In this document: positions 3,568 to 48,491 of the stretch, one piece after another | Layout: each line of letters starts with the position of its first letter | Numbering within the stretch: the stretch's first letter is position 1 | Origin: Bacteroidia bacterium | Lineage (GTDB): Bacteria; Bacteroidota; Bacteroidia; UBA10329 | Length of the DNA: 52,962 bases | Assembly: GCA_047611425.1 (NCBI GenBank) | Contig: JBLFWJ010000002.1 | Location: 1-52,962, forward strand | Reading direction: 5' to 3' | Program-made: the position numbers and the translations under genes | The notes under the pieces: model-generated | What the model was told of the DNA's origin: nothing | The model's input: the letters and a program-made list of their open reading frames with translations, nothing else | The model's database searches: none

Positions 3568-3688
3568 AGCTCGGTCGGAGGCTTTAGCGATTGTAAGGAT
3601 AACGAATTCGGTTCTTGACAATTGTTCAAAGGGATACATTTTCGCTAAGCGTCATCTTAATTAGAAAGCGCACGTGTAACTTAGTTCC

Positions 3689-5395: not shown

Positions 5396-6163
5396 TTACT
5401 GATTGAATCCTCGAAGTCGGATTTCTGTCAATACTTTTTTTGTGTAAGATGGAAAGTCAGCATCCATCATCCAGTTATAATAGGAAGGTTGTTGTTTGAG
5501 TATCTCGACAACAGGTTTTCCTTTGAATTTTCCAAAATTGAAACATTCTATTCCTTCTTCATTGTAGACAATATGTCCAGAGAAATCTGCGGCATTGTGC
5601 CTTCTAGAGAATTCATGGAGAAAGTCCATGTCATCGTTCAGCTCATCGTACTTCTCTAGCTGAGAACGAAACACTTCATAAGTTGCACGTGTATCTGCTT
5701 CGGCACTATGCGCATTTGTAAGATCCTTTTGACAATAGAATTTGTACGCTGCCACAAGCGTTCTTTGTTCCAACTTGTGAAAAATATTTTGGACATCGAC
5801 ACATCGTCTTCCTTTCATATTCATGTCAACGCCAACTCGCGCGAGCTCTTCCATTAGCATCGGTATGTCGAACCTGTTGCTATTGAACCCGCCTAAATCG
5901 GCATCGTCCATAAAGGCTACAACCTTTTGCGCCACCTCGCCAAACTTTGGGCTATCCTTTACCTTCTCATCGGTAATACCGTGTATGGCTGCAGACTCTG
6001 ATGGAATTGGCATCTCAGGGTGAACGAGCAGCGTAAGTGTTTCTTCCGATCCATCAGGATTAATCTTTAAACCCGAGTATTCTACAATTCGATCTTTGCC
6101 AACGTTAACACCTGTGGTTTCTAGGTCGAAGAACACCACTGGACGCGATAATTTCAATGTCAT
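5396..6163 (-). CDS. DEDDh 3'-5' exonuclease (DnaQ/epsilon-like domain protein)
   Basis: Exo I motif FFDLETTG, Exo II motif GFNSNRFDIPML and Exo III motif HSAEADTRAT. Confidence 0.85.
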   Translation of the reverse strand: MTLKLSRPVVFFDLETTGVNVGKDRIVEYSGLKINPDGSEETLTLLVHPEMPIPSESAAIHGITDEKVKDSPKFGEVAQKVVAFMDDADLGGFNSNRFDIPMLMEELARVGVDMNMKGRRCVDVQNIFHKLEQRTLVAAYKFYCQKDLTNAHSAEADTRATYEVFRSQLEKYDELNDDMDFLHEFSRRHNAADFSGHIVYNEEGIECFNFGKFKGKPVVEILKQQPSYYNWMMDADFPSYTKKVLTEIRLRGFNQ

Positions 6164-6172
6164 AAATCTGGT

Positions 6173-8164
6173 TTATTCAGGAAGCGTTAATCCATTCTGA
6201 AAGAGAACGGATTTTTTGACAATCTCTGGTTTGTAGTTCCCTAATCCAGGAATAGTCAATGGCTTTTCTATAGTTTGGAAACCATCCGCTTTGATGGTCA
6301 TATTGTAGTATCCAACTGGAAGTGTCGCAACTACTCTACCTGTTTTGTAATTCGGAAGGTAAGTTCCCATCAAATCTCCATTCACATCACTAATCGTAAT
6401 CATGATACCTAGTTCTGGAAAGCCCGTTACAGGGTTTTGGTCTATGGAAGCTCCCTGCTTTGCTACCTGTACCACCTTTTTCCTAGTGTCTACCCAAACA
6501 AAGGAATCATCTCCAACCGGAAACGTTGCTGGTGTGAATTTCTGAACACCTCCGCCACCAACTGATCCAATGACGGTTATGTCGCAGCGCTCCCCATCTT
6601 TCACCGTTTTCACAACTGTTTGATCAAATGACCATTCTGGTAAATCGAATGGTTGATACTCGTCCGTAAACTCTTTCAACGAACCATCTGATTTCTTCCA
6701 AACATGAAAATTGATTTTCTTCGCCACACCACCTACAGTGGCAAATGCTAATTCAGCAACAAATGCAGACAACCGCTCTTCTTTATCGTTATAGATAACT
6801 CGATAAATATCGGTATCACCAAGCCCGTTCAATCGCAATTGAGATACGTACGCTACTCTAGGGTCATTAGATGGGCAATAAGTGAAATTATCCTGTGTGT
6901 TATTCACTGGGTAACCTAAGTTTTCTGGCCTATCCCAACGTTTGAATTTATCATCCCATTCACTTTTAAATACATCATAGCCACCCATACTGTTGTGTCC
7001 CATTGATGCGAAATACAAGGTTTGTCCATCAAATGAAACATATGGATATTGCTCATCATATTGAGTGTTGATAGTTGGTCCTAGATTAACCGGGACGGAC
7101 CAAAGGCCACCAGGCAAACGTTTAGTCATGAAAATGTCTGTGCCTCCAAAACCAGGAGAGTCAAACGGGGTTCGCGCAAAATAGAAGGTTTGTCCATCAG
7201 GTGTACTGCTTGCACCTATTTCAGGTTCATCAGAATTAATCCCTGCACCCAGGGTTACCGCCTTGTTCCAACTTCTACCTCTTCTATCGGAATACCAAAT
7301 GTCATCTGTCGCGTCTTCGTTGTCGACACGGATGTACATATAGTTTCCATCGGCAGAAACGCTAACCAACTCCTCAATCCATTCGGAATTAACCACCATA
7401 CTGGCATTCTTTGCCCTGTCGAATTCATTGCCTTTTACCTTGCACATAAAAACATCAGGTGGCTTAAACCCATCATAATCCACCATGTTTCCAGCAACTC
7501 CTTTTTCTCTTTTTGTAGAGAACAAGAGGTAAGATTGATCCTCCGGTATGAATGGATTATAGTCTGGACCTGCAGAATTCACCTTGGCCCCTAGGTTTTT
7601 AAAGGTCACATCCAGAGGCTTGGCGATGAATTTCTTAGCTGAATTGCACATTTCAATTCTACGCGTCACATCGATAAGCAGAGCAGGATCCTTTTCAATT
7701 ACTTTATATTTATTGAAGAAGTAGAGAGCGCTATCTAGCTTCTCATTAAACATATAAGCCACCCCCAGCTCAAAAAGTGCCATATAGTCTGAATCTTCCA
7801 TATCAGCCACCTTCCGTAGATACTTTATGGCTCTTTTTTTATCCACATTTTGGTATAGGTGACAAAGACCAACACGATAATTGAAGAATTCATCTTCAGG
7901 TTTTTCCGCCAATAGCTCTATATAATGCGGCAAAGCATTCTTATAATCACCAATTAGGAAAAGTTTGTTGGCTCTGTCTTTAGGTCCGAGGGCTCGAATG
8001 TCGTCTCCTCCGTCTTGTCCCATTATCGTTGGCATTGTGGACCCAAAAAATAAAAGGACCATCAAAATGCGAAAGGCCTTCCCTAAATTAAAGATTGACG
8101 AAAACTCGTTGAACATGATTCGATTACCCGATTTGCGTTTGTTTAAAAGGGTTCCCGCCATCAT
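6173..8164 (-). CDS. PorE-like paralog E: TPR + PD40 (TolB-type) beta-propeller + extra ~110-aa segment + CRD-like beta-sandwich; no OmpA_C
   Basis: Signal peptide ...STMPTIMG|QD (Met17 is an alternative start). TPR-like helices are present (LFLIGDYKNALPHYIELL..., FELGVAYMFNEKLDSALYFF). PD40-type blades include SVSADGNYMYI, STPDGQTFYFA and VSFDGQTLYFASMGHNSMGGYDVF. The C-terminus GTYLPNYKTGRVVATLPVGYYNMTIKADGF is CRD-like. The ATGA overlaps the upstream gene. Confidence 0.7.
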   Translation of the reverse strand: MMAGTLLNKRKSGNRIMFNEFSSIFNLGKAFRILMVLLFFGSTMPTIMGQDGGDDIRALGPKDRANKLFLIGDYKNALPHYIELLAEKPEDEFFNYRVGLCHLYQNVDKKRAIKYLRKVADMEDSDYMALFELGVAYMFNEKLDSALYFFNKYKVIEKDPALLIDVTRRIEMCNSAKKFIAKPLDVTFKNLGAKVNSAGPDYNPFIPEDQSYLLFSTKREKGVAGNMVDYDGFKPPDVFMCKVKGNEFDRAKNASMVVNSEWIEELVSVSADGNYMYIRVDNEDATDDIWYSDRRGRSWNKAVTLGAGINSDEPEIGASSTPDGQTFYFARTPFDSPGFGGTDIFMTKRLPGGLWSVPVNLGPTINTQYDEQYPYVSFDGQTLYFASMGHNSMGGYDVFKSEWDDKFKRWDRPENLGYPVNNTQDNFTYCPSNDPRVAYVSQLRLNGLGDTDIYRVIYNDKEERLSAFVAELAFATVGGVAKKINFHVWKKSDGSLKEFTDEYQPFDLPEWSFDQTVVKTVKDGERCDITVIGSVGGGGVQKFTPATFPVGDDSFVWVDTRKKVVQVAKQGASIDQNPVTGFPELGIMITISDVNGDLMGTYLPNYKTGRVVATLPVGYYNMTIKADGFQTIEKPLTIPGLGNYKPEIVKKSVLFQNGLTLPE

Positions 8165-11100
8165 TCGTAAGATTTAAGTTCAAGGTTATAAAGCGCTTCC
8201 GTTATTGCAATATCCGTGTCTTTAAAGTAGAAAACACCGCCCCAGTCCCATATCTTCTTCTCATATACAGTAACTACGCCAGAAGCGTTCACAATATGTC
8301 TTGCTAGAGTAAAGCCTTTCCCGTTAACAATTTCTTCGGTAAGTCCTTCTGGGTAAATCTGAGCCAGCTCTGATAAAAATGCCAACCGTTGCTGTTCCGC
8401 ATCCAAATTCAATTCTTCAACCCGTTTCAACGCTTCCTCATATCGTTGTTGTCGTACATCTTCTTTATCAGATGGAGCTTCAGATGATGTTGCTGATTGA
8501 TCATTTTGAATTGCCTTAAGTGCAAGAGCTCGTGCGGCTTGTACTTCTGCTAATCGTGTCGCTTCAGCATCTTTCCGTGCCTGGTCGGCCGCAGCTTGTT
8601 CCTCAAATTTTCGCTTGGCCTCTTCTTTCTTTAAACGGTCTTTTTCTGCGGCATCGGCAATCAATGCCAACTGTTCATTTGCCTCTGCTATTTTAGCTTG
8701 AGGTACAGACTCAGTCGGTTTTAAGACAAGGGCTTGATCGAATTTATTCTTGGCTTCGGCATATTTGGCAGAAGCCATCAGATTATTACCATCCTGAAGC
8801 AAAAGCATGTACTCTCGTTCTTTGCCCGCCTTCTCCTTGTCCGAAGCAGCTATTTGAACCTTAAGGGCTTCAATCTGCTTTATCTGTTCTCTTGGCTCTT
8901 TTGCTCTTGGTTTTTCTTTTAAAGCACGATTGTATGCTGCAATGGCCTGATCGTAATCCCCTACTTCAAAAGCAAGTTCTGCCGTTTCAATTTGGTTGTG
9001 ATAGCGATCATCCAATGCTTGCGTTTCTCTTTCCGCTTTTGTAATATCCTTTTCAATTGATTCCAAGTCCTTGACCTTATCCTTAATTTCCTTTCCATCA
9101 GGTTTTAGAGCCAATCCTTGATCATACTGTGTTCGGGCCTTAGCATAGTCTTTCTTATCAAATGCTTGATTTCCTATTGTGAGGAATCTCAGGTAGTCTT
9201 CTTCTTTCTTTTTGGCGGCAAGGGCTGCATTAGCCTTCAGCTCGTCTTCATTCTTCTTCTGCAACTCAGCAGCTACTCTCTGTTCTTCCTTTGATTTTTC
9301 TAGCTCTACCCTTGCAGCAGCCTTGGCCTCTAAATCTGCCTTTTGCAAATCCTCCTTCTCCAACCTCAACTCTACCTTCTTTTGAGCAGCCTTTGCTTTT
9401 ATGCGCTCCGCTTCCAGCGCATCAAGCTGTGTTTGTCTGTCAGCAGCCCATCTATCTTCAACTTTTCTTTGATCCTCGGCTTTTCTACGGTTTTCCGCTT
9501 CTATATTTTGCTGGCGTTGTTTAACAGCCGCCAATTCATTTGCGTTGATTTCATCAATTCGCTCTTGTTCAGTAGCTATGCGAGCATTTTGTTTCTCAAA
9601 CTGCTCTCTTTGAAACAGAATCTGTTGTTTCTTTTCATCTTCTACTCTAGCCCTACGTTCCTCTTCTACTTTTTTCGCTACCGCTAGGTATTGTTCATCA
9701 GCTTTTCGTTTTTCATCCTCGGCTTTGCTAACCTTTGCTTGAGCTATTTCTTCTGCCCTTACCAATCTGGTCTCTTCGTACTTTCTTAAATGAGCAAATT
9801 GATCTGCTTTTTTCTCCTCATATTCTTGTTCTAAAATGTCTATCTCCTTTTGGTTTGCCGCAGCAAACATATCTTGATATCTGATGTTTGAAACTCCACC
9901 AACAGCATTTTTTTGAATTCTATAAGCATCGAACATTGCTTCTGCCTTTTCACGTCTGAACTCGGCATCTTTAGGAAGCGTCTCCATCAATGCTTCCACT
10001 GTATTTTCCCGTTCTCCACCACCTTGTGCAATTGCGTTTTCTAGTTCCTTGTATTTCTTGTTTCGTAAATCTCCAATAACTTGTTTGTGAACCACTTGAG
10101 CATCTTTTTCAGACTTAACACCTAACTCTCGTTTTTCAACTCTCACATTAGCCCGTTTTGCCTCAAGATCTTCCCACTGTCTTTGCTTTTCATCAAATCG
10201 GTCATTTTTCTTCTTTTGCTTCGCTTCATCCTCAGTTTGTTTTGCCACAGCAAATAGAGAGTTAAAGTCAATGCCGGAATAGTTATTTCCCCCTTGATTT
10301 ATCTGACGACTTTCCACATACGTGTCATAAACAGCCTGTGCCTTTTCCTCTTTGTATGGATCATTCTTCGAAAAGGCTTCTTGAAGCGCTTTAATCGTTT
10401 CTGCTCGTTCTCCATTTGAACTTTTAATGGCCTCCTCAATTTTCCTCACAGTTTCTTGCTCCTCAGCTATCTTCCTACCCTCAACTTTGGCCATAAATGC
10501 CGCTAACCTTGCTGAATCCGCTTGGTCTTTTGTAGAAGATTCATTTTCACGAGCCGCAAATTCAGCAGTAGAAGCCGCTGCAAATAGATTATCGAAATTC
10601 ATGCTGGAAAGTGTGGATCCAGTCTTTCGCATATTTTCATACTCTGCGTAAACTGCCGCGGCCTTTTCTTCCCTGTATGGGTCTTTTCCAAATTGCTTTT
10701 CAAGATTTTTTATGGCTGTTTCAGGGTTTCCATTTGCGTTGAAAATTGCTTGATAATAACTTTCGACCTTCTCTGCTTTGACTTCCTTTTGCCGTGACTC
10801 TTCTTCGGTAGCTGCTGCAGCGATTCTTTCTCGAGCCTCCAATTGAGACGAGGCGTTAGCTTTTGCCAACGCTTCAGATTGCGCTTGTTTTACCGCAAGT
10901 GTTGCATTTTGAACCTTTGCCTTTCTCTGTTCTTCAATTTCAGTCATTTCAGCCATATGCTGAACCTCAAATTCTTGAGTCGATTTAAAAATTGACTGAA
11001 AATCGATATTGGCAGTAGTACCACCTTGTTTCTTCTTTTCCTTCTCTAGCTCAGCAAAAATTATGTCCACTTTCTTAGCTCGAAGAGAATCTGACTTTGG

Positions 11101-11823
11101 ATAGATTTTAAGAAGTGATTCTTTAACTTTCGTCTCGTCTCCGCCAATCGTTGCCGTTGCTTTAATGATTTCAGCTGCTTCCAAACCATCTGATTCTAAC
11201 AGCATTTTAGCTGCCTCTTCTCGCTCAAACTTTTGTTGGGCTTCCAACTCGGCCTGTCGATGTCGTTCTTCTGCTAACCTTGCAAGACGTTCTTCTTCTA
11301 CTTGTTCCTCTTTAGTGTAATCAAGTTCATAGGCCATTGAATTTTTCCGAATGTCGTAGAACACTCTAGCCACGGCTCCTACATAGTCTAATCCATCAAG
11401 GTCTTTAACTAGATAAACATCGAACATAAACTTTGGCACTTTGGTTTCTGTAGATGCCGCCATAGTAACATCTGTGTCGAAGTCAACCATTTTGCTGGTA
11501 AATCCATCCTTTTCAACCTTAATGACATACATTTTATTAATGTCAAGATTAAAAGCAAATTTGCCATTCCCTTTCGTGACCATCTTCTTAATCTCGACCA
11601 AACCACTTTTAGATCCATCGGGGTCTTCAAAAATGGTAACCACGACCTCCTTTAGAGTTTTGCTCAGTTCTTTTGCATTACCTTCAATCTGAACCGGTGG
11701 TTTAACGTTTGATTGGTATTCGACTACTTCAGTGTATTCTCCATTATCCTGCCCAACCACATTCGATAGGCTAAAAATGAAGGCCGTTAGGCAAAGTAGT
11801 ATGTAGGTCTTTAAATCTGGCAT
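8161..11823 (-). CDS. 1220-aa secreted coiled-coil protein with N-terminal CRD-like domain, four ~68-aa repeat modules, three TPR-like units and a small globular C-terminal domain
   Basis: Signal peptide SLSNVVG|QD. The CRD-like stretch is VVVTIFEDPDG...KFAFNLDINKMYVIKVEKDGF. Roughly aa 170-1145 is E/K/A/Q/R-rich heptad-like sequence. Repeats and TPR units are described in the findings. Confidence 0.7.
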   Translation of the reverse strand: MPDLKTYILLCLTAFIFSLSNVVGQDNGEYTEVVEYQSNVKPPVQIEGNAKELSKTLKEVVVTIFEDPDGSKSGLVEIKKMVTKGNGKFAFNLDINKMYVIKVEKDGFTSKMVDFDTDVTMAASTETKVPKFMFDVYLVKDLDGLDYVGAVARVFYDIRKNSMAYELDYTKEEQVEEERLARLAEERHRQAELEAQQKFEREEAAKMLLESDGLEAAEIIKATATIGGDETKVKESLLKIYPKSDSLRAKKVDIIFAELEKEKKKQGGTTANIDFQSIFKSTQEFEVQHMAEMTEIEEQRKAKVQNATLAVKQAQSEALAKANASSQLEARERIAAAATEEESRQKEVKAEKVESYYQAIFNANGNPETAIKNLEKQFGKDPYREEKAAAVYAEYENMRKTGSTLSSMNFDNLFAAASTAEFAARENESSTKDQADSARLAAFMAKVEGRKIAEEQETVRKIEEAIKSSNGERAETIKALQEAFSKNDPYKEEKAQAVYDTYVESRQINQGGNNYSGIDFNSLFAVAKQTEDEAKQKKKNDRFDEKQRQWEDLEAKRANVRVEKRELGVKSEKDAQVVHKQVIGDLRNKKYKELENAIAQGGGERENTVEALMETLPKDAEFRREKAEAMFDAYRIQKNAVGGVSNIRYQDMFAAANQKEIDILEQEYEEKKADQFAHLRKYEETRLVRAEEIAQAKVSKAEDEKRKADEQYLAVAKKVEEERRARVEDEKKQQILFQREQFEKQNARIATEQERIDEINANELAAVKQRQQNIEAENRRKAEDQRKVEDRWAADRQTQLDALEAERIKAKAAQKKVELRLEKEDLQKADLEAKAAARVELEKSKEEQRVAAELQKKNEDELKANAALAAKKKEEDYLRFLTIGNQAFDKKDYAKARTQYDQGLALKPDGKEIKDKVKDLESIEKDITKAERETQALDDRYHNQIETAELAFEVGDYDQAIAAYNRALKEKPRAKEPREQIKQIEALKVQIAASDKEKAGKEREYMLLLQDGNNLMASAKYAEAKNKFDQALVLKPTESVPQAKIAEANEQLALIADAAEKDRLKKEEAKRKFEEQAAADQARKDAEATRLAEVQAARALALKAIQNDQSATSSEAPSDKEDVRQQRYEEALKRVEELNLDAEQQRLAFLSELAQIYPEGLTEEIVNGKGFTLARHIVNASGVVTVYEKKIWDWGGVFYFKDTDIAITEALYNLELKSYE
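9838..11172 (-). repeat. Four protein-level repeat modules inside the coiled-coil gene (approx. 10969-11172, 10549-10752, 10231-10434, 9838-10041)
   Basis: By eye, the modules share G.E...(I/V)..L.....K(D)P(Y/F)(R/K)EEKA.A(V/M)(Y/F)..Y ... (I/M)x(F/Y)xx(L/I/M)FAxA. Examples are NGNPETAIKNLEKQFGKDPYREEKAAAVYAEY...MNFDNLFAAAS and NGERAETIKALQEAFSKNDPYKEEKAQAVYDTY...IDFNSLFAVAK. Confidence 0.7.
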
Positions 11824-11854
11824 TTCCGCAACTTAATTCAACGAGTGATGTAAA

Positions 11855-14800
11855 TCATTTCCCCTCGGTGGTAATAACCGTCCCTCCTCCAACATCAACT
11901 ATGGTCAATTCAATTCTTCTATTCATCTGACGTCCTTCTGGATTGTCAGAACCGTCTGGATTCTCGTTAGGTGCAATATGTTTGGTTTCTCCATAACCCA
12001 TTGGCACAACTCTTTTAGATGAGACATTCTTCTTTTTTAACCATCCAACAACACTCTTGGCTCTATTTCTACTGAGTTTCATGTTATATTCATCTGAGCC
12101 ACGCGCATCTGTGTGTCCAGAAATCTCCACTTTCACTTTAGGGTAGTTGTCCATGAAAACCAATAATTTATTCAATTCTACAATTGACTCATCTCGAATA
12201 TTGTAACGGTCGAAATCGAAGTAAATCCTTTCTAGAATAATCTTGTCGCCCACTTTTAATTCTCGGCTGTTGTTAATGTCAGCGTCAAGCAATGTTGGGT
12301 CATAGCCCAAAGCACGTTGCTTTTCCATTGATGCCAGTTCCTCTTCCAGTCTAGCAATCTCTTCTTCCAATTCGCCTGTTGGTATATCCTGAACTGGCCT
12401 CACATCCACTATCTCAGGCTCTGTAAATTTCATAAAAGGAGAGAAACACACGTCATTAATTTCTTTTGAGTGACCATAACACGGGGTAATCTCATCACCA
12501 GTTTTGAAATACCACAATTCAGGATCTTTGTCCTTTGTTCCGGTAATCACATATTGGCTATTCTTTGAAATGTAGGTGGATGAAACAGGTTGGTCATTGC
12601 CGACAAATGCATTTCGAACACTTGAACTAACTGCATCCCAAGAATATATAAATGCATTGGTACTTGCCGACACAACTGTTCTGCTGTCTGGTGAAATCAT
12701 CACATCAGTAACAGCCGATCCATGAAGTTGAAATTCATTGAGCATTGCTCCAGTTGAGATGTCCCATCTCTTTGCTTTTCCATCCGACCCTCCGGTAACA
12801 ATATAACTGCCTGAAGGGGCATAAGAAACACTGAGCACAGGACCTGAATGTCCAGGAAAAACTCCAACCAGTTCCTCACTAATCACTTCCCACATTAGTA
12901 CATTCCCATCATCTGAAACAGAAACAAAGTAGTTTCCGTCAGGGCTTACTGCTACATCATTTACAGCAGCTTGATGACCATAATATGTTTTAAGAGCAAG
13001 TCCTGATTCAACATCAAAAAGTTTTATTGTTGAGTCTGAACTAGCAGAAAGGAAATATTTTCCATTTGGAATAAAGGAAGCTCCATTTACCCGAGCTTTA
13101 TGGCCATAGTAAGCCTTGTGCAAGGTACCATCCGGCAAATTCCATAGATTCACCTTTCCAGATTCCATTGCGTTCAATGCGTACTTACCGTAGGGTGAGA
13201 ATTCAACTGTTGTAACGTTTCCGGAGTTATAAAGGTCGAGCACCATTTTACAGTTAGGCACATCCCATATCAAAGCATGTCCATCAGGGCTACCTGACAT
13301 CGCATAAACATTACCACCTTGCTCCTCTCCAAGCATTCTCTTACGCCATTTTTCCGGATCGTTTCGAAGCGTGTAATCTTTAATAAGTTCTCGTACCTGT
13401 GCATTCTTACCCATTACTGTAAGTACTTCCGCTGTATCGTAGAATAACTCTGACTCGATGTATACGCAATAGCTACCAGGTTCAAGTACTTGTACGTAAT
13501 TACTAGACTTACCGTGTGGACGATAGGTTCCTATGAATTCGCCAGTAAGATCGTTGGTAACAGTCATAACGACATCTCCAATTTCAAAATTCGGATCCAT
13601 TGCTAGGGAGTCCTTGATATTGGTAACCGATCCCCGAACAATTGATTCGACTGGAATAACCTCATTAAACGTTACTCTATAAATATCCCTTTCACCTAAT
13701 CCGCCAGTTCGAAATTGTGATATGTAACCGTATCGGCCTGTCGTAGACATACTAATGTTAAAGTCATCATCAACAGTATTTATTGGATAGCCCACATTCC
13801 TTGGAACGGACCACGTATTTGTCAATTCATCCCATTCGGTAGTGAAAATGTCAAAACCGCCCATACTAGTATGCCCTTCACTACAGAAATAAAGGGTTCG
13901 ACCATTTGCGGCTAAGTGAGGAAACGATTCATTGTACTCTGTATTGATCACATCTGGTAGCCTCTGACCAATACCCCATCTGCCGTTAGGCAACCTTCGG
14001 CTCATGTACAAATCGGTTCCTTTTTTCCCTTTTCCAGTCTCGCGAGAAAAGAAAACTAAGTTTCCATCGGTGGAAAGTCCGGCCGTAGTTTCAATGTCAT
14101 CCGTATTGATATTCTTTCCGAAATCTTTGTATTCATCAAAGAATCTACCTTTTCGAGGAGAAACCATGATATCATCGTATCCATCAAAATTGTCGATGTA
14201 AACTAATAACTCTTGCCCATCGGCCGAAATCCCTACAACTTCCTCAAAATACTCTGTATTTACTGATGAACCGATATTGTGTGCTTCTTTGAATTTCCCT
14301 CTAACGGTTCTTGATCTGAAAATATCCGTTGCTTTGTATCCATCATAATCAAGATAAAGTCCCAAACAATCTGGTCTTTTGGTGCAGAAGACAATAAAAG
14401 ACTCATCCTCAGGAATAAACGGGTTATAATCCGGATACGGTGAATTAACTAGTCCACCGAGGTTTTCAAAAGTTACGTCTCTAGGGTATTTCAACAACTG
14501 CTTTCCATTAAAGCACATTTCAATCATCCTAGATCCCGTAATGATATTGTCTTCTTTCCCTCTGCTGATTTCCTTGAATTGATTAAACGTTGTTATTGCT
14601 TCATCAAATCGGTGTGCAAACATGTACGCCCTTCCTAGCTGATATATAGCCTCTTTGGGAAATTTCGGTTGCTGAACAACGTATTCAAGATATGAAATAG
14701 CCTTGGTTTTATCGATGTTTGACTCTAGGTAACAAGCTCCGATATAGAAGTTGGTTTCAACGTTAGAAGGATCCTTAGAAAGAAGGATGAGGAAATCTTC

Positions 14801-15040
14801 TATAGCAGCGCGAAAATTACCACCCCAGTAATAATCCATCGCTCCTCTTTTAGAGACCTTTAATCTTCTCTTATCCCTTTGTTCGTCACTCTCGTTAATA
14901 TCCCGATTGAATTCATCCTCAGAAACTTTGGTGATGTCCCGAGACTGGCCATTGGCCGTGGACCAAGAAGCCACAATGTATAGCATAATCGCAGCCAATC
15001 TGGTAAACCAATTGGTGAGATTGTATATCGGTTTTTTCAT
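11855..15040 (-). CDS. PorE-like paralog C: TPR + PD40 propeller + CRD + 7-bladed WD40 propeller + short coiled coil + OmpA_C peptidoglycan-binding domain
   Basis: Signal peptide ASWSTANG|QS. PD40 blades include GISADGQELLVY, GLSTDGNLVFFS and LAANGRTLYFCSEGHTSMGGFDIF. The CRD is TNDLTGEFIGTYRPHGKSSNYVQVLEPGSYCVYIES. WD40 blades lie at about 12431-13318. OmpA_C lies at about 11906-12238 (IYFDFDRYNIR...ISGHTDARGSDEYNMKLSRNRAKSV...NRRIEL). Confidence 0.8.
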   Translation of the reverse strand: MKKPIYNLTNWFTRLAAIMLYIVASWSTANGQSRDITKVSEDEFNRDINESDEQRDKRRLKVSKRGAMDYYWGGNFRAAIEDFLILLSKDPSNVETNFYIGACYLESNIDKTKAISYLEYVVQQPKFPKEAIYQLGRAYMFAHRFDEAITTFNQFKEISRGKEDNIITGSRMIEMCFNGKQLLKYPRDVTFENLGGLVNSPYPDYNPFIPEDESFIVFCTKRPDCLGLYLDYDGYKATDIFRSRTVRGKFKEAHNIGSSVNTEYFEEVVGISADGQELLVYIDNFDGYDDIMVSPRKGRFFDEYKDFGKNINTDDIETTAGLSTDGNLVFFSRETGKGKKGTDLYMSRRLPNGRWGIGQRLPDVINTEYNESFPHLAANGRTLYFCSEGHTSMGGFDIFTTEWDELTNTWSVPRNVGYPINTVDDDFNISMSTTGRYGYISQFRTGGLGERDIYRVTFNEVIPVESIVRGSVTNIKDSLAMDPNFEIGDVVMTVTNDLTGEFIGTYRPHGKSSNYVQVLEPGSYCVYIESELFYDTAEVLTVMGKNAQVRELIKDYTLRNDPEKWRKRMLGEEQGGNVYAMSGSPDGHALIWDVPNCKMVLDLYNSGNVTTVEFSPYGKYALNAMESGKVNLWNLPDGTLHKAYYGHKARVNGASFIPNGKYFLSASSDSTIKLFDVESGLALKTYYGHQAAVNDVAVSPDGNYFVSVSDDGNVLMWEVISEELVGVFPGHSGPVLSVSYAPSGSYIVTGGSDGKAKRWDISTGAMLNEFQLHGSAVTDVMISPDSRTVVSASTNAFIYSWDAVSSSVRNAFVGNDQPVSSTYISKNSQYVITGTKDKDPELWYFKTGDEITPCYGHSKEINDVCFSPFMKFTEPEIVDVRPVQDIPTGELEEEIARLEEELASMEKQRALGYDPTLLDADINNSRELKVGDKIILERIYFDFDRYNIRDESIVELNKLLVFMDNYPKVKVEISGHTDARGSDEYNMKLSRNRAKSVVGWLKKKNVSSKRVVPMGYGETKHIAPNENPDGSDNPEGRQMNRRIELTIVDVGGGTVITTEGK

Positions 15041-15177
15041 CGCAACGGCCCTATTGTGCGGACCAAATCAAGTCAACCACCAAATAAACTGAAACTAGAT
15101 CAGCGACACAAGAATATATCGATAATAAACACTTTAAATGCAAGAAAAGGTGGAGATAACCGTTTTATTCGGCTTGA

Positions 15178-18100
15178 TTAGGACCCAATCTGCAATCCTT
15201 TTGGAATGTTGATCTTCTCAACTTCCATCTTTTCGGTTTTGCCTGTTGGTAAACCAATCTCTATTCTTCGGTTTAAAGCTCTGCCTGATGGATTATCTGT
15301 TCCATCTGGATTTTCATTAATGGCAATCGGTCGTTGTTCTCCATAACCAACGGCTCTCAATCGGCTTTTACTTATACCCATATTGGTAAGGTACCTTAGA
15401 ACCGACTCGGCTCTAGTTTGAGATAAGCGCATATTGTAACCATTGTCTCCCTTAGAATCTGTGTGCCCCTCCACTACTATTGAGACTCCTGAGTTATCCT
15501 TGAGAAAGTAATATAGCTTATTCAACTCCTTCTTTGAAGTTGGTTTTAAAGAAGCTTGGTTGTAATCAAAGAAAATATTTTTGAGCACAAAATTCTTCCC
15601 GCTCTTCAACTCCTCAGCTGAGAAGACAGCTTCCCGGGGCTGGGGTTTTACTGCTCTACTAGTGCTCTTGCCGCTAACCCCCATGTTATTCATGATGATA
15701 TCCAGCTTTCGGTTAACCTCGGCAAATTGATCTCTGAGATCTTTGTTCTCATTAATCACTTGCTCATTCATTATTCGCAGCTCGTTAATATTGCCAGCGC
15801 TATTGTTTCGCGATTTTTCTTCTTCAGCCTTTCTAGCTGCCTCTGCCTTAGCTTCCTGTTTCTTTCTTTCCGCAGCACTTGCGATTTCTGATTGTCTAGC
15901 CGATTCCTCCTGGCGACTTAATTCTTCCAATCGATCCGATTCGAGTCGTGCAGCTTTCTCCTCTTTTAGCCTATCTGATTCTAAGTTCTCAAACTGACTA
16001 TCTAACTGCTTTACTTGCGACTCTAGTTGAGACCGTTCCTGATTATTAGAAGCGCCTTGAGCCAGTAAAGAACTTTTAGCTTCTTCAGCCTCAGAAAGCG
16101 ATTGCTCAGCTTTGTTCTTACGGTTCAGCACTTTTCTTCTTCTTTCATCCAGATTGGCCAATTCTTCATCAGCCTCCTTAATGTCAGATTCAGCCTTAGT
16201 TGCGACCAAAGACTCTTCCTCAGTTGACTTATCTATCCCCTTCTTCTCTGTTTTAAGCCTTGCGATTCTTGCAAGAGCATTAGCCTTCTTATCCTTGATT
16301 TCAGAAGAGCTAAGCGATTCTGCCTGAATAGATTGAATCGGGTTTTGCTTTACCGGCTCTTTCGTGACTTGCGCAACTTCTTGCTTTGGAGGAAGTTTGA
16401 TTGGCGCCTTCTTTATTTCTTGCTGCTTTGCAACCGGCTTAGTTTGCTGGGCTACAGGCTCTGCAGGTGTATCGTAACCAACTCCTTGTTTAGCTGCTTT
16501 TAACTTTTCTATCCTAGCCAAAAGTTCAGCACGCTTTTTCGCCACAGGATCAACGATTTCTTCAGTTCCTTCAGTTTTCACTGGCTCTTGTGAAGAAGCC
16601 AATTCTCCAGCTCTACTTTCCTCCTCTAATTGTTTAGCTAGCTCTGCCGATCGGGCCATCTCGGCCTTTTTATCCGCCTCAAGTTTAGCAGCGGCTTGTT
16701 CTTGCGCAATTCTATCGTCTGCCGCATTCTTGGCATCTAGCTCAGCTTCATTTTTTTTAGCGACTTCAGCCTGCTGAGCGGCCAGAATTTGCTGACGTTG
16801 TTTCTCTTGAGCCTCTTGTTCTGCTAATTGCTCTTCTTGAAGTTTCTGACCCTCACCCTCTGCTTGCTTTGCAGCTAAATCTTGCGCTGCTTTTTCACTA
16901 GGCTTTTGTTTCGAGGCTTCAATTCGTGCCGTCTGCGTATCAGCAGCTAATTGATCTATCTGTTCTCGCTCTATCCGCTTTCTTTCTGCATTTGCTGCTT
17001 CAGCTTCGGCCGCCTTTCTCAGCTGTTCGGCAGACTGTGCTTCCATGGCAAACTGATCTTCCACTTCTTGACGCTCTAACGCATCTGCTTCCTGCTGTGC
17101 AAGAAGGTCGGAATTCAATGCAGAGTTAGCAGCTGCGACTATCGCCAAACTATCTTCTTCTGCCTTCTTAGCTAATGCAGCAAGACGAGCCAATTCTTCT
17201 TGACGTTTCTTTGCTTGAAGAGCTAGAATCTCATCTCCAAACACCACTTCATCTAGCTCAATGGTTTTATTTATTTCGTAGTAAGTTGAGTTGTCTGGAA
17301 CGTCCACCAAAACTTCTTTAGAGGCATACCCATCAGCGTGATAAGTCACCTCATAATCTTCCCCCGGATCCAAAATAAGGATGTAACGGCCAGTTTCACG
17401 ATTCGGCCTGTACTCGCCAACAATAGATTCGGTACCCACCTCCCTTACAGTGATTTTCGCACCAAGATCCGAATACGCCATTGCTGGGACAGTCATTTTA
17501 CCCGCTAAAATCGTTACGGATGCGGCTTTGGTTTCCTCTAATTTGAGGAGGTATATATCCTGCTCTCCCATTCCTATTGACCGAACGGAAGAGTAATATG
17601 CGTATCGACCATCAGGAGTGGTAACGAAAAACATATCGTTCATAGGCGAGTTTATCGGGTATCCAATATTTTTAGGACTGCCCCATACTCCGTCAACAAG
17701 TTCCGATCGGAATAAATCAAACCCACCCATGCTGCGGTGGCCCTCTGAGCTAAAAATCAAAAATTTACCATCAACAGTTAGAAATGGTGATTCTTCAGCA
17801 TATGGCGTATTGATAGAATCGCCCATGTTTTGAGACAAACTCCACTCTCCATTTGGTAGCTTCCTAGTATAATAAAGATCTCTTTCTCCTCTTCCTCCTG
17901 GTCTATCGGACGTGAAGACAAGCAAATTCTCATCTGCAGAAACAGTAGCGTGTGTTTCCCACGAAGAAGAGTTTACATCAGACCCAACCTTTTTTGGTGT
18001 AGACCATTGACTTCCTTGAAGAACACTGAAATAAATGTCCATGTCCTTATATATATACAAGGTTTGGCCATCAGGTGATAATCCGATTGCTGCTTCGTGA

Positions 18101-18834
18101 TCCGCTGTATTAATGTTGGTACCAATGCTTGTCGGCTTAGACCAAGTGTCCCCAACTTTTTTGCAAACGAAAATATCATCAAAATACTCTCCAGTACCTG
18201 TCAAATCATCACCCGTACCTGTTTCTCTTCTACTTGTAAAAATTAGAGTTTGACCATCAGCAGAAAGAACAGGGCAGAAATCTTCGTACCGAGAATTAAT
18301 ACCTGGAGGAAGCTTATTAATCTTAACCTTTACCGGGTTTTCAGACAATTCTTTTCCAGTTTCGGCATATTCAATCTGACGTTTCACGTCATTGTATACT
18401 TCATAATCATCCATGTCAATGAATGATCTATAATTGAAGTAGTTACCTACAGCTTTATCATAGTCTCCGACCTTATGGTATGCACTTGCCAGATAATAAT
18501 AAGTCTTTCCTGGAGCACGCTTTTCTTTCCAGTTGGCCTCTTGATAGTCAAGTGCAACATTGCGGGTGGCGGTTTCCAAGAACGTAATTGCGCTTCGATA
18601 TTGACCTAGGCCTAAATGGCAAAGACCTATTCCGTGATTGATATTTGCATTGGAACTATCGTGGGCGTACATGTCCTTATACAAGACAATAGCCTCTTCG
18701 TAAGCACCATCGAACGCAAGTCCGTCAGCATCTTTGAATTTCTGTTTGAACTTTGAATCACCGAATGGTTGCGCAAACACTTGCGCAGAGATTGCCATTG
18801 CCGCCAAAATCAAGAGTAGGTTTCTCTTGATCAT
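15178..18834 (-). CDS. PorE-like paralog B: TPR + PD40 propeller + CRD + ~500-aa coiled-coil/Pro-rich spacer + OmpA_C domain
   Basis: I chose Met34 of the track ORF (15178..18933), which gives signal peptide MIKRNLLLILAAMAISAQVFA|QP. PD40 blades include VLSADGQTLIFTS, GLSPDGQTLYIY, VSADENLLVFTSDRPGG and FLTVDGKFLIFSSEGHRSMGGFDLF. The CRD is VGEYRPNRETGRYILILDPGEDYEVTYHADGY. OmpA_C lies at about 15253-15591 (IFFDYNQASL...VEGHTDSKGDNGYNMRLSQTRAESV...NRRIEI). Confidence 0.8.
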   Translation of the reverse strand: MIKRNLLLILAAMAISAQVFAQPFGDSKFKQKFKDADGLAFDGAYEEAIVLYKDMYAHDSSNANINHGIGLCHLGLGQYRSAITFLETATRNVALDYQEANWKEKRAPGKTYYYLASAYHKVGDYDKAVGNYFNYRSFIDMDDYEVYNDVKRQIEYAETGKELSENPVKVKINKLPPGINSRYEDFCPVLSADGQTLIFTSRRETGTGDDLTGTGEYFDDIFVCKKVGDTWSKPTSIGTNINTADHEAAIGLSPDGQTLYIYKDMDIYFSVLQGSQWSTPKKVGSDVNSSSWETHATVSADENLLVFTSDRPGGRGERDLYYTRKLPNGEWSLSQNMGDSINTPYAEESPFLTVDGKFLIFSSEGHRSMGGFDLFRSELVDGVWGSPKNIGYPINSPMNDMFFVTTPDGRYAYYSSVRSIGMGEQDIYLLKLEETKAASVTILAGKMTVPAMAYSDLGAKITVREVGTESIVGEYRPNRETGRYILILDPGEDYEVTYHADGYASKEVLVDVPDNSTYYEINKTIELDEVVFGDEILALQAKKRQEELARLAALAKKAEEDSLAIVAAANSALNSDLLAQQEADALERQEVEDQFAMEAQSAEQLRKAAEAEAANAERKRIEREQIDQLAADTQTARIEASKQKPSEKAAQDLAAKQAEGEGQKLQEEQLAEQEAQEKQRQQILAAQQAEVAKKNEAELDAKNAADDRIAQEQAAAKLEADKKAEMARSAELAKQLEEESRAGELASSQEPVKTEGTEEIVDPVAKKRAELLARIEKLKAAKQGVGYDTPAEPVAQQTKPVAKQQEIKKAPIKLPPKQEVAQVTKEPVKQNPIQSIQAESLSSSEIKDKKANALARIARLKTEKKGIDKSTEEESLVATKAESDIKEADEELANLDERRRKVLNRKNKAEQSLSEAEEAKSSLLAQGASNNQERSQLESQVKQLDSQFENLESDRLKEEKAARLESDRLEELSRQEESARQSEIASAAERKKQEAKAEAARKAEEEKSRNNSAGNINELRIMNEQVINENKDLRDQFAEVNRKLDIIMNNMGVSGKSTSRAVKPQPREAVFSAEELKSGKNFVLKNIFFDYNQASLKPTSKKELNKLYYFLKDNSGVSIVVEGHTDSKGDNGYNMRLSQTRAESVLRYLTNMGISKSRLRAVGYGEQRPIAINENPDGTDNPSGRALNRRIEIGLPTGKTEKMEVEKINIPKGLQIGS

Positions 18835-18974
18835 TGCAGCTGAGATGCCATTAAACATAGGATTCCACACTTTTAAAAACACTCCAGCCCTGTTGTTCGT
18901 TAAGCCGCGCAAAGCTAATAGAATATTGGGCACAAGGAATGTGACAAAAACATTGCTTTGGCCTTGCCTTTGAC

Positions 18975-20594
18975 CTACTTATTTTTAAGCACCATCTTCT
19001 TTAATTCGATGGTTCGATGAATCTCAAAATATGCGGTATTCTCAGGCACAAAAAGCTTCTCTGAGCGATACATATAACCCTCTGCTTCATAAGCAATATT
19101 GTAGTTGTTTCCAGGATGAAGAATTAAAATGAATGTTCCATTGTCGTTTCTTGGTTTGTAAACACCAAACATGTTCCCTGTCTCATTGTCCGAAACTGTA
19201 ATGAAAGCGTTTGGCGGCAATTTTCCATCGGCTCCTTTCGCAAACACTCCTCTATATACCGTCAAAGGAATCTCCTCCTCCAATCCCATATTCATCATAA
19301 AGATGTCCTTTCCACCTTTTCCACTTTGGTTGGAACTGGAATAGTATCCCCGCCTTCCATCGGGAGATGTATTGAAGAAATATTCGTCATCAGCGGTGTT
19401 TACCGGAATACCCATATTCATTGGAGTAGACCAATTTCCTTTTTCATCCATTACGCTGAAAAAAATGTCGTAACCGCCCATAGAGGTATGTCCTTTAGAA
19501 CTGAAGAACAACGTCTTTCCATCCGGGTGAATGAAAGGTGCTTCTTCGTCAAATGGCGTATTAATCTTATCGTTCAACTTGACTGGTTTTCCCCAATCAC
19601 CATTAGGCAAAAGACCTGCCTGGTAAATGTCCATACCAGAATCACCAGCTCTATCGCTGGTAAAATAAAGCAGTTGACCATTGGCCGTGATACTTACGTG
19701 CGTTTCACGAAATGTACTGTTGATGTTGTCGTTTAGCATAACTGGTTCTTGCCAAACTCCTCCATCTAATCTGGATTCATAAATGTTTCCATCACCAAAA
19801 TCATCCCTATAAATGAAGAGGCGCTGACCATCTGCACTCAAACTAATCGTTGCTTCATGGCCTTCCGTGTTGATATTGTCTCCAATACTCACAGGAGACT
19901 GCCACTCCCCATCTTTCTTCATCGACACGTAAATGTCCTCGAAGTACTTCTCATCCTCCGCAACATATCGACCTGTACTATTTGGCCTTCTAGAAGTGAA
20001 GATCATGGTGGTCTCGCTGGCATCGATTACTGGCGAATATTCATCATAAATTGAGTTAATGTTGTCTCCCAATCGAGTTACCTCGGCACTTATGGGTTGC
20101 TGAGCAATCAGGCTTCCATTCTTACACATTTCAATCTGTCGGTCAAGATCTGCGATTTGCTCCTTATCTGCCTTTGAAACTTTGCTCTTGTACTTTTCAT
20201 AAGAGGCAATGGCATTATTGTATTGCGATGCCAAGTGGTATGCACGGGCAAGTTGCAGAAAAGCATCTTCTGGTGCTGATGTTTCTTTAAAGTTATCCTT
20301 GTATTTACTGGATACGTTTGAAGCAGCCGCTTCCAAATACGGAACTGCCAAATGCTTATCGCCATTGATTCCCAAATAACAAACGCCAACCTTATAGTTA
20401 AAGTTGAAGTTTTTTGGATTGAGCTCTAAGAGCTCCAGGAAATTCTTTGCTGCCTGCGGATACTTTTTCGCTTCCAATTGCTTGTTGGCAATAGGATATA
20501 TCCGTTTGTAAGCAGAAGAAGTCTTTCCACCCTGAGCCATGGATTGCAATCCAAGGCAGGTAATAATTGCAATTACAGTGAATACTGTTCTCAT
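18975..20594 (-). CDS. PorE-like paralog A: TPR + PD40 propeller + CRD; no OmpA_C
   Basis: Signal peptide ...LGLQSMA|QG with TPR-like helices. PD40 blades include IDASETTMIFTSRRP, SLSADGQRLFIY, SITANGQLLYFTSDRAGDSG, FIHPDGKTLFFSSKGHTSMGGYDIF and NTSPDGRRGYYSS. The CRD is NMFGVYKPRNDNGTFILILHPGNNYNIAYEAEGY. Confidence 0.75.
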   Translation of the reverse strand: MRTVFTVIAIITCLGLQSMAQGGKTSSAYKRIYPIANKQLEAKKYPQAAKNFLELLELNPKNFNFNYKVGVCYLGINGDKHLAVPYLEAAASNVSSKYKDNFKETSAPEDAFLQLARAYHLASQYNNAIASYEKYKSKVSKADKEQIADLDRQIEMCKNGSLIAQQPISAEVTRLGDNINSIYDEYSPVIDASETTMIFTSRRPNSTGRYVAEDEKYFEDIYVSMKKDGEWQSPVSIGDNINTEGHEATISLSADGQRLFIYRDDFGDGNIYESRLDGGVWQEPVMLNDNINSTFRETHVSITANGQLLYFTSDRAGDSGMDIYQAGLLPNGDWGKPVKLNDKINTPFDEEAPFIHPDGKTLFFSSKGHTSMGGYDIFFSVMDEKGNWSTPMNMGIPVNTADDEYFFNTSPDGRRGYYSSSNQSGKGGKDIFMMNMGLEEEIPLTVYRGVFAKGADGKLPPNAFITVSDNETGNMFGVYKPRNDNGTFILILHPGNNYNIAYEAEGYMYRSEKLFVPENTAYFEIHRTIELKKMVLKNK

Positions 20595-20614: not shown

Positions 20615-20642
20615 AAAAAAGATTCTCAGGTCAAAGAGAATC
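20615..20642 (-). terminator. Candidate intrinsic terminator after the E2 gene
   Basis: The minus strand reads GATTCTC-tttgacct-GAGAATC followed by TTTTTT. The stem is 7 bp and AT-rich, so it is only moderately stable. It is nested inside an outer 8-bp inverted repeat, CGTATCGG (20649-20656) / CCGATACG (20600-20607). Confidence 0.5.
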
Positions 20643-20665: not shown

Positions 20666-21991
20666 TTAAATGGTTCTGTTAATATCGAAACTTTCGAGTA
20701 TTTGCGCCACCCTTTGCACAAACTTTCCTCCTAGCGAGCCATCAACCACACGGTGATCGTAGCTATGAGAAAGGAACATCATGTGACGAATTCCAATTAG
20801 ATCGCCTTGAGGCGTTTCAATAACGGCAGGTTTCTTTCTAATTGCACCAAGCGCAAGAATCGCAACTTGAGGCTGATTGATAATCGGGGTTCCCATCACG
20901 TTTCCAAACGTACCAACATTGGTCATTGTGTAAGTTCCACCTTGAATATCCTCAGGAGTGAGTTTGTTGTTTCTTGCTCGGTTGGCAAGATCATTCACAG
21001 CCTTGGTAAGACCCAAAAGGTTTTTCTGATCGGCATCTTTAATAACCGGAACAATCAAATTTCCACTTGGCAAAGCCGTGGCCATTCCAATATTGATGTG
21101 CTTTCGCTTAATCACATTCTGACCATCCGTAGAAACATTCACGCCTCTCATTTCAGAAATTGCCTGGGCAATTGCTTCTGCAAAAATTGGCGTAAAGGTT
21201 AACTTCTCTCCTTCCCGCTTTAGGAATTCATCCTTAATCTTGTTTCTCCAATTTACGATGTCGGTCACATCGGCCTCCACAAAACTGGTAACGTGGGGAG
21301 ATGTCTGCTTACTCATAACCATGTGGTCAGAAATGAGCTTTCGCATTCTGTCCATCTCCACAATCTCATCACCTTCCATAGAAACGATGGCTGGTGCAGA
21401 AACTGGAGCTTTCGCAACTGGAGCGGATTTCGCTGGCTTAGCCGTTGGAGCTGAAGCAGGTGTTCCGGTTCTATTAGGAATGTAGGCCAACATATCATGC
21501 TTGGTGACCCTTCCGTCTTTTCCAGTTCCTGATATTGCCTCCAACTCAGGCATTCCAATACCCTCGGATTTGGCCATGCTTCGAACGAGCGGAGAATAAA
21601 ATTTACCAGAGTCAGATCTTCTTTCTAAAACCACATCAACAACAGATTCAGCTATAACTGTAGAACCGTTGGCAGATGGAGCAACAGGTTGAGGTGCCTT
21701 CTCAGGAGCAGGAGCAGGTGTCGAATTCGTGGATCCGCCCGCTTCTTCAACATCCGTTGTAATGTACCCAACAATGGCACCGACAGCAACCACATCTCCT
21801 TCTTCACATAGCTTTTCCGTTAGAACACCCTCTACTGGAGATGGTATTTCGGAATCAACTTTATCCGTGGCAATTTCTAGGATTGACTCTTCCGATTCAA
21901 TCGTTTCTCCAACTTCCTTGCACCACCTGATAATGGTTGCTTCAGCTACACTCTCGCCCATTTTGGGCATAATCACTTCAATTTTTGCCAT
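20666..21991 (-). CDS. 2-oxoacid dehydrogenase E2 component (dihydrolipoamide acyltransferase); cognate complex not assignable
   Basis: I chose the start MAKIEVIMPKMGES (the track ORF extends to 22018). Lipoyl motif EIATDKVDSE. E3/E1-binding domain SPLVRSMAKSEGIGMPELEAISGTGKDGRVTKHDM. Catalytic motif SHSYDHRVVDG. There is no adjacent E1 gene. Confidence 0.85.
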   Translation of the reverse strand: MAKIEVIMPKMGESVAEATIIRWCKEVGETIESEESILEIATDKVDSEIPSPVEGVLTEKLCEEGDVVAVGAIVGYITTDVEEAGGSTNSTPAPAPEKAPQPVAPSANGSTVIAESVVDVVLERRSDSGKFYSPLVRSMAKSEGIGMPELEAISGTGKDGRVTKHDMLAYIPNRTGTPASAPTAKPAKSAPVAKAPVSAPAIVSMEGDEIVEMDRMRKLISDHMVMSKQTSPHVTSFVEADVTDIVNWRNKIKDEFLKREGEKLTFTPIFAEAIAQAISEMRGVNVSTDGQNVIKRKHINIGMATALPSGNLIVPVIKDADQKNLLGLTKAVNDLANRARNNKLTPEDIQGGTYTMTNVGTFGNVMGTPIINQPQVAILALGAIRKKPAVIETPQGDLIGIRHMMFLSHSYDHRVVDGSLGGKFVQRVAQILESFDINRTI

Positions 21992-22206
21992 CGAATTGTC
22001 CTGTTTTAAGGGGCGCAAAGGTAAGTGGAATGTGCTGATATTGAAATGCTGGTCTTAGCATTGGTTAGATGCTTTGGTGATTGGTACTTCCCAAAAGGCA
22101 CTGAACTCCCTTTGGTCGGTTCAACTCCGGTCAGGGGACACCCTTCAGGAGCCTGGAGGCCAGCGCTTTGGATGATGGCTCGTTAAAGTATAGTGAGATT
22201 CTTATG

Positions 22207-43747: not shown

Positions 43748-43853
43748 ACAGCGATTCCGCCAACGGGGTACAACCTGATCAATAATAACGGAATAATCGG
43801 CTGGAAGTATGTCGTGAGGCATCAATCCGCCACACGTTTCAATTCAATTCTGA

Positions 43854-45110: not shown

Positions 45111-45146
45111 ATCTAGCTTTTAGGTATTAGGTATTGGCTATTAGCC

Positions 45147-48473: not shown

Positions 48474-48491
48474 ATCAAGTAGTTCGGGGGA

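Follow-up and report, generated by a model that had tools for sequence, protein, structure and literature searches.

In a 52,962-nucleotide stretch of a Bacteroidia genome (GenBank assembly GCA_047611425.1, contig JBLFWJ010000002.1, positions 1 to 52,962; hereafter the window), open reading frame (ORF) calling placed five consecutive genes, A to E, on the minus strand at positions 6173-20594. Our tentative reading is that these genes belong to a lineage-specific, vertically conserved cluster (core B-C-D-E, usually preceded by A) encoding five Sec-exported, non-lipidated periplasmic proteins, which would most plausibly act together as a peptidoglycan-attached scaffold. This reading is carried by features that can be read from the sequences themselves: the paralogy of A, B, C, and E, the wall-anchoring residues of B and C, the export signals of all five proteins, and the conserved gene order.

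The five genes are tightly spaced. A and B are separated by 41 bp (140 bp with the alternative start of B given below), B and C by 137 bp, and C and D by 31 bp, and D and E overlap by 4 bp (ATGA), in agreement with the arrangement described in the original prediction. Gene A (18975-20594) encodes 539 amino acids (aa) comprising a signal peptide, tetratricopeptide repeats (TPRs), a PD40 propeller, and a weak carboxypeptidase-regulatory-like domain (CRD), without OmpA_C. B (15178-18933, a 1251-aa ORF) and C (11855-15040, 1061 aa) each carry an N-terminal module resembling that of PorE, a type IX secretion system (T9SS) component, and end in an OmpA_C domain; a charged helical linker of approximately 535 aa precedes this domain in B, and an inserted WD40 propeller precedes it in C. 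D (8161-11823) is a 1220-aa helical/TPR protein. E (6173-8164) encodes 663 aa, with a signal peptide, TPRs (residues 61-180), and a propeller (186-458), and also has no OmpA_C. The GTG assigned by the program is probably not the true start of B, which, judging from the N-termini of its orthologs and a TAnnTTTG motif in the A-B spacer, would be M34 ('MIKRNLL', window position 18834). This motif (TAGCTTTG, 18910-18917, minus strand) matches the Bacteroidetes-type -7 element by motif only and is a possible internal promoter.

Pairwise BLASTP comparison identified A, B, C, and E as true paralogs, with 31-40% identity and E-values of 1e-53 to 1e-118. The closest pairs were A-B (40%, 1e-118) and C-E (39%, 1e-103), followed by A-C (34%, 1e-84) and A-E (33%, 1e-64), and the remaining pairs shared 31-33% identity. 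Pfam searches detected PD40 at significant scores (43-93 bits) in all four paralogs (87.5 bits in A, 92.5 in B, 46.3 in C, and 42.7 in E), whereas among the five proteins the OmpA domain was found only in B (83.6 bits) and C (65.5 bits). The WD40 propeller of C scored 152 bits, and TPRs were found in D (TPR_2, 37.5 bits). The earlier assignments of OmpA_C to B and C, but not to A and E, and of a WD40 propeller to C were thereby borne out. The N-terminal modules aligned to the NCBIfam models for PorE (NF052230) and CHU_0125 (NF053607) from approximately model position 20 to 430-510, and their homology to PorE reached E = 1e-39 to 1e-78. All scores were nevertheless below the curated cut-offs, which are 600 bits for PorE and 620 bits for CHU_0125: the PorE model gave 180, 265, 220, and 136 bits for A, B, C, and E, and the CHU_0125 model, which ranked first or nearly first among the NCBIfam matches of A, C, and E, gave 195, 270, and 158 bits for these three.

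The predicted blade motif S(E/K)GH(T/R/N)SMGG(F/Y)D(I/L/V)F recurred in all four paralogs, with SMGHNSMGGYDVF being the version in E. Its conserved Ser, His, and Asp were considered as a catalytic site, and this candidate was rejected because the motif sits at the PD40 blade consensus position (S.R.GG.G.DIY); from inspection of the repeats, we treat it as structural. The CRD was detected by Pfam only below threshold in A, B, E, and D (E = 0.0004-0.06), and C gave no Pfam match to it, even a sub-threshold one. The TPR/PD40/CRD/OmpA_C order that had been predicted was thus recovered in B and C, each with an insertion, but A and E depart from it in lacking OmpA_C, and its CRD element is visible to Pfam only at sub-threshold scores. 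The AlphaFold2 (AF2) model of E (predicted local distance difference test, pLDDT, 81.7) contained TPR helices, the propeller, an extra beta domain (465-566), and a terminal beta-sandwich (573-656). Foldseek with this model returned TolB and other propellers, searches with the whole-chain models returned only generic propeller, TPR, and transthyretin matches, and a PDB sequence search with A gave no match. The WD40 propeller of C (12431-13303, approximately residues 580-870) is a lineage-specific insertion, since the C orthologs of a distant clade (loci L004, L019, L020, L022, L025, L026, L028, L030, and L031) are approximately 750 aa long and have no WD40.

All five proteins, in the window and in ten related loci, start with a hydrophobic signal of the signal peptidase I (SPI) type ending in A/G/S-x-A↓Q, and no conserved lipobox Cys was present in any of these signals. 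SPI cleavage that leaves an N-terminal Gln (the 'Q-rule') is typical of Bacteroidota. Neither Pfam and NCBIfam searches nor inspection of the signals revealed a beta-barrel, a transmembrane anchor, or a T9SS C-terminal domain (CTD) in A-E. Because of these SPI signals and the lack of a CTD, beta-barrel, or transmembrane anchor, A-E are probably soluble or wall-bound proteins of the periplasm, and the link to the outer membrane that had been suggested for them was not borne out. Binding to the wall is predicted for two members. The OmpA_C domains of B (15301-15573, residues 1121-1211) and C (11951-12223, residues 940-1030), whose regions are 44% identical, both have an intact Asp/Asn/Arg triad. 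In PorE, peptidoglycan is contacted by Asp576, Asn584, and Arg591 (PMC7192894); B (HTDSKGDNGYNMRLSQTR) and C (HTDARGSDEYNMKLSRNR) retain this triad with the identical spacing HTD-x7-N-x6-R.

B and D also contain long charged helices. The linker of B (15634-17238, residues 566-1100) consists largely of Ala (17%), Glu (16%), Lys (11%), and Gln (10%); among orthologs it varies from 473 to 877 aa and in most of them contains neither Pro nor Gly. Charged residues make up 38-46% of the helices, and the longest single helix, predicted by AF2 in D, extends over 174 residues (approximately 26 nm). Heptad periodicity was significant only in residues 865-1065 of B (z = 4.3), the segment just before OmpA_C (residues 865-1100 lie at 15634-16339, minus strand), and was not detected in the D helices or in the first half of the B linker, which resemble charged single helices. 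For D, the term helical rod is therefore justified by the helical AF2 model, whereas a coiled coil is not shown; of the earlier description of D as a 1220-aa coiled-coil/TPR protein, the length, the TPRs, and the helical character stood. An antiparallel hairpin of the B linker at a Pro-rich hinge (811-860) was also considered and rejected as a general feature, as the hinge is missing in most orthologs. The lengths of the B linker and the D helices co-varied weakly (rho = 0.62, p = 0.01, n = 16, a statistic that ignores phylogeny).

The AF2 model of D (pLDDT 70) begins with a seven-strand sandwich, followed by approximately 950 residues of helices that include the 174-residue helix as well as a short helix-turn-helix repeat with the motif 'DPYKEEKA...Y...DF..LF', present four times, and ends with TPR pairs and a small C-terminal domain. 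The N-terminal sandwich (11413-11694, residues ~44-137) has a CarboxypepD_reg/transthyretin-like fold: PF13620 matched it below threshold (E = 0.0004), and transthyretin folds matched at a root-mean-square deviation of approximately 4 Å, the same fold search also returning TPRs. The C-terminal domain of approximately 75 aa (8164-8388, residues 1146-1220) includes WDWGGVFYFKD and hardly varies from one ortholog to the next; its consensus reads ..FLSELAKKYPEGITEE..R.IVN..G.A.EY.KV.H.WGGVYYFKNG.SI. Both domains had been overlooked in the original prediction. No Pfam or NCBIfam model was found for the C-terminal domain, although the last 100 residues of D matched at least 256 protein cluster representatives (E <= 1e-3) of 59-2282 aa, and in all of the best 150 matches listed the domain lay at the C-terminus or within approximately 20 residues of it. 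Among ten such proteins that were scanned, seven had an N-terminal CarboxypepD_reg match and six a TPR match, and a signal peptide started nearly all of 25 sampled proteins.

D shares this architecture of signal peptide, CarboxypepD_reg-like sandwich, TPRs, and terminal 'YPEG.TEE...WGGV.YFK' domain, which makes it a giant among the members of an uncharacterised family with the order CRD, TPR/helix, and C-terminal domain. Typical members, such as P0222 and P0238 (MBS1652080.1), have the same four parts, but D is two to three times longer owing to its charged helices and repeats. Furthermore, P0222, the one short member whose neighbourhood was examined, is solitary, whereas D always adjoins PorE-like genes; this linkage is specific to the present lineage. 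The more distant D matches P0076 and P0066, also encoded by solitary genes, were similar to D in the TPR/helix part only. A search with a D profile returned TPRs and, apart from these, only a compositional match to the TolA helical region (E = 1e-3). The C-terminus of D was also considered as a T9SS type-B CTD, and this was rejected, since its last 102 aa gave no Pfam or NCBIfam match even at E <= 10. No Por_Secre_tail (PF18962/TIGR04183) was found in D, though other proteins of the window match TIGR04183.

The gene order is conserved well beyond the window. Homologs of D numbered 83, all from metagenomes or metagenome-assembled genomes (MAGs) and none with a functional name, and a GTDB-wide scan yielded 25 loci, all in MAGs labelled Flavobacteriales or Bacteroidia and largely from lakes. 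The order A-B-C-D-E is kept in approximately 25 species-level genomes, all uncultured, which upholds the prediction that the five genes would be syntenic in related genomes. Loci whose D homologs are 37-38% identical have the same order and the same flanks, a BLAST map of all loci showed that the order holds wherever the contig extends far enough, and the synteny spans D identities of 26-45%. In L004, L025, and L026 the flanks have changed, yet B-C-D(-E) is retained. Orthologs of A are 51-62% identical in 14 loci, and E has about 80 ortholog clusters. In a neighbour-joining tree of the N-terminal modules, the four paralogs formed four monophyletic clades, A being sister to B and C to E; the monophyly of each clade across genomes implies that the four-paralog set is old and has been stably retained. 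Relatives outside the lineage are solitary, namely E-like proteins of 575-579 aa encoded beside an exonuclease/FAA-hydrolase gene pair and TPR-PD40 proteins of approximately 530 aa in unrelated gene contexts, which shows that the five genes are linked specifically and not as a matter of course in these families. A literature search found no paper describing the five-gene cluster.

Two observations on individual loci may be added. The C ortholog in L002 (6597-9967) and the D ortholog in L017 (9160-13436) are each split into two ORFs, which reflects a frameshift or else a fault in the assembly; in L003, a contig near-identical to L002, C is intact. In a Bacteroidales MAG (L035, 7966-10581), 13 bp separate the end of an mreB-like gene from the start of P0191, a 526-aa TPR-PD40 relative, a single case that may hint at a connection with cell shape.

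Taken together, the domains suggest how such a scaffold might be built, and it is complex formation, rod geometry, and the function of the products that we infer here. B and C would pin the assembly to the wall through OmpA_C. The TPR and propeller heads, together with the WD40 propeller of C, could serve as protein-docking hubs, by analogy with the propeller of PorE, which binds PorP, and the CRD-like sandwiches of most members may mediate contacts between them. The linker of B (470-880 aa) and the helical region of D (approximately 900-1270 aa) would act as rod-like spacers; if extended, these helices would lie along the wall, since they are probably too long for the gap between wall and outer membrane. 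The likely role would be in envelope organisation or stability rather than in core T9SS function. A joint function is supported by the persistence of B-C-D(-E) where the flanks have changed, the tight spacing, the D/E overlap, and the retention of old paralogs. Consequently, of the envelope scaffold inferred earlier, a co-functional, peptidoglycan-attached module remains likely, whereas the proposed connection to the outer membrane or the T9SS was not supported.

Several points weigh against this scaffold. A is missing from L026, which together with the promoter motif in the A-B spacer suggests that A may be separable from the cluster, and E does not adjoin D in L025. Because E-like genes also stand alone beside the exonuclease/FAA-hydrolase pair, part of the synteny could be historical. 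The D helices have no heptad periodicity, so that D may not be an oligomeric rod, and the C-terminal domain of D was modelled by AF2 at low confidence. Finally, all carrier genomes are uncultured.

The kinship with PorE raises a different explanation. In Porphyromonas gingivalis, PorE (PG1058) is a lipoprotein that combines TPRs, a propeller, a CRD, and OmpA_C; the last of these is essential, and the propeller is implicated in PorP binding (PMC12773672, PMC7192894). The same order of TPR, 5-6-blade propeller, CRD (below the Pfam threshold in B and undetected in C), and OmpA_C is found in B and C, which share with PorE the peptidoglycan-binding triad and the periplasmic location, while A and E match the N-terminal module only. 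The original prediction held that PorE is normally discussed as a single gene, which does not agree with the literature: 14 homologs are known in Tannerella forsythia and more than 20 in Flavobacterium johnsoniae, none of the latter predicted to be a lipoprotein (PMC7192894), and F. johnsoniae has five operons each combining a PorE homolog with a type-B substrate and an SprF-like shuttle protein (PMC12618676; also PMC9143113). A, B, C, and E resemble these F. johnsoniae proteins in occurring in several copies and in not being lipoproteins. The paralogs could, as in F. johnsoniae, be accessory anchors for the T9SS, with each one tethering a PorP/SprF-like shuttle protein and a type-B cargo to the wall, with D as a cargo or adaptor. 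The homology of the N-terminal modules to PorE and the presence of a T9SS in the organism speak for this; the window contains bona fide porV (480 bits, cut-off 250) and porU (1357 bits, cut-off 420) at 47190-52502 on the minus strand, approximately 27 kb from the array, and genes for T9SS type-A CTD cargo at 4-2070 (M1 peptidase) and 23077-23799. However, we consider such a role improbable. Unlike in the F. johnsoniae operons, neither the window nor the syntenic loci L001-L004 revealed a PorP/SprF (PF11751) gene or a gene for type-B CTD (CHU_C domain) cargo, none of A-E has a T9SS CTD match, the paralogs score less than half the PorE cut-off, and A and E have no OmpA_C, the domain essential for PorE function (PMC12773672). 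The array proteins differ from P. gingivalis PorE also in having no lipid anchor, in the insertions of B (the helical linker) and C (WD40) between CRD and OmpA_C, and in the linkage of their genes to that of a giant helical protein. The T9SS link of the original prediction is therefore reduced to distant homology (136-270 bits against 600/620). The DUF5723 gene at 2071-3639 was considered as a hidden PorP-like partner and rejected, as it gave no PorP_SprF signal and is not syntenic elsewhere. The possibility that C is a true CHU_0125/PorE ortholog masked by its WD40 propeller was rejected as well, because the WD40-less C orthologs of approximately 750 aa scored 221-236 bits with the PorE model and 257-288 bits with that of CHU_0125, less than half of either cut-off.

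A further explanation, which we rate as somewhat less improbable than T9SS anchoring although still doubtful, is an expanded Bacteroidota substitute for Tol-Pal, in which TolB-, Pal-, and CpoB-like parts and the TolA domain II-like helices of D and B would provide dynamic tethering of the outer membrane to peptidoglycan and constriction. Like TolB, Pal, CpoB, and TolA, the array proteins offer a propeller, OmpA_C, TPRs, and long A/E/K-rich helices in the same compartment, the D profile matches the TolA helical region weakly, and PorE, which fuses CpoB, TolB, and Pal folds, has already been hypothesised to be a compact Tol-Pal that may replace the system in Bacteroidetes (PMC12204202). CHU_0125 of Cytophaga hutchinsonii, which has the same TPR-PD40-OmpA_C architecture, is a Pal-like envelope-integrity protein, and its mutant has a defective outer membrane and forms vesicles in excess (PMC5891637); envelope integrity is the kind of function proposed here, but CHU_0125 was studied as a single gene rather than as a conserved cluster of five, and the scores of the array proteins and their orthologs (158-288 bits) are far below its cut-off. 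Against a Tol-Pal substitute, the window ORFs and the syntenic loci, compared with MotA_ExbB, ExbD, and TonB/TolA models, contained no TolQ/TolR/ExbB/ExbD motor gene and no gene for an inner-membrane-anchored TolA/TonB-like protein, none of the five proteins has a lipoprotein or transmembrane anchor, and neither a TolB N-domain nor a lipoprotein Pal is present. TolB (TIGR02800) scored 18 bits against a cut-off of 343 and Pal (TIGR02802) 77 and 69 bits against 125, and the TolA match is compositional. The resemblance to a shuffled Tol-Pal set noted earlier thus holds at the level of folds, no TolQ, TolR, or TolA gene is present here, and the idea had been published for PorE. Alternatively, the genes may have no joint function and represent a tandem duplication of a common periplasmic family that encloses an unrelated helical gene, and a narrow lineage would have kept them together through inheritance only. 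Flavobacteria carry PorE-like genes in many copies, solitary relatives are common, and the flanking housekeeping genes are syntenic in most loci, meaning that local order is generally conserved. This account, to which we also give little credence, does not explain why the B-C-D(-E) order outlasts flank changes in three loci and persists at only 26-30% D identity, why each of the old paralog clades has been retained, or why the genes are tightly spaced up to the D/E overlap. Each of the three alternatives either conflicts with at least one feature examined or explains less than the peptidoglycan-attached scaffold.

A bolder version of the scaffold can be imagined, which we put forward as speculation with a low probability. 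The rods of D and of the B linker, anchored on peptidoglycan through B and C and joined to one another by the propeller, TPR, and CRD hubs of A, C, and E, might form a periplasmic 'periskeleton' along the wall of uncultured freshwater Flavobacteriales, which would set envelope spacing or cell shape or give surface machinery a fixed track or stator. Long helices are likewise combined by Deinococcus SlpA (PMC9388160) and Vibrio CrvA with a wall-binding domain in the periplasm, making a spacer or periskeleton role possible. The array proteins have no sequence relationship to either, and SlpA differs in its outer-membrane barrel and SLH domain.

The transcription unit may extend past E. A DnaQ-like exonuclease gene (5396-6163, minus strand) follows E at 9 bp and an FAA-hydrolase gene (4781-5392, minus strand) follows the former at 3 bp, and both are probably co-transcribed with E. 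Despite their conserved synteny, they were not counted as functional parts because their products are cytoplasmic. The same pair also trails solitary E-like genes in more distant genomes (L033, 9001-12182; L034, 9001-12173), implying that its link to E-like genes predates the five-gene array. Upstream, a terminator-like hairpin followed by a T-run (20621-20642, minus strand; a consensus match only) lies between the gene for an E2 acyltransferase and A. A scan for sigma-70 promoters stayed at background (33 sites against 31 ± 6 expected), and Rfam and tRNA scans of the window found no RNA family and no tRNA. Elsewhere in the window, two separate 2-oxoacid dehydrogenase E2 genes are present on the minus strand (20666-22018 and 43854-46148), the second adjoining an E1 component gene. 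The DUF5723 gene (minus) and a gene for a PagL-like outer-membrane barrel (plus) occupy 2071-4780 between the M1 peptidase and FAA-hydrolase genes; neither is found at this place in the syntenic loci L001-L003, so the two are a local insertion. At 24506-25243 (plus), an ORF for a transposase of the IS256 family (Zn-binding variant) aligned to model positions 55-301 of 304 and, given this late start of the alignment, may be N-terminally truncated. A 1197-aa ORF at 40232-43825 (minus) had no Pfam or NCBIfam match.

PorE-like proteins, which have many paralogs, have been proposed as wall anchors of the T9SS and possibly as the Bacteroidota stand-in for Tol-Pal. The parts, the Tol-Pal analogy, and the existence of multiple non-lipidated PorE homologs in Flavobacteria are already known; what is new is that the five genes keep their arrangement, that the insertions are rod-like, and that D belongs to a family without a model. 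The cluster, which is confined to uncultured lineages, represents a natural experiment, in which a giant helical protein is tied to four retained paralogs that differ in having or lacking the domain for wall binding and in carrying a rod or a propeller as an insertion. The cluster also provides a handle on two uncharacterised items, the CRD-TPR family of D and its unmodelled C-terminal domain. Should the five proteins prove to work as a single assembly, they would illustrate how larger periplasmic architecture is built from this set of domains.

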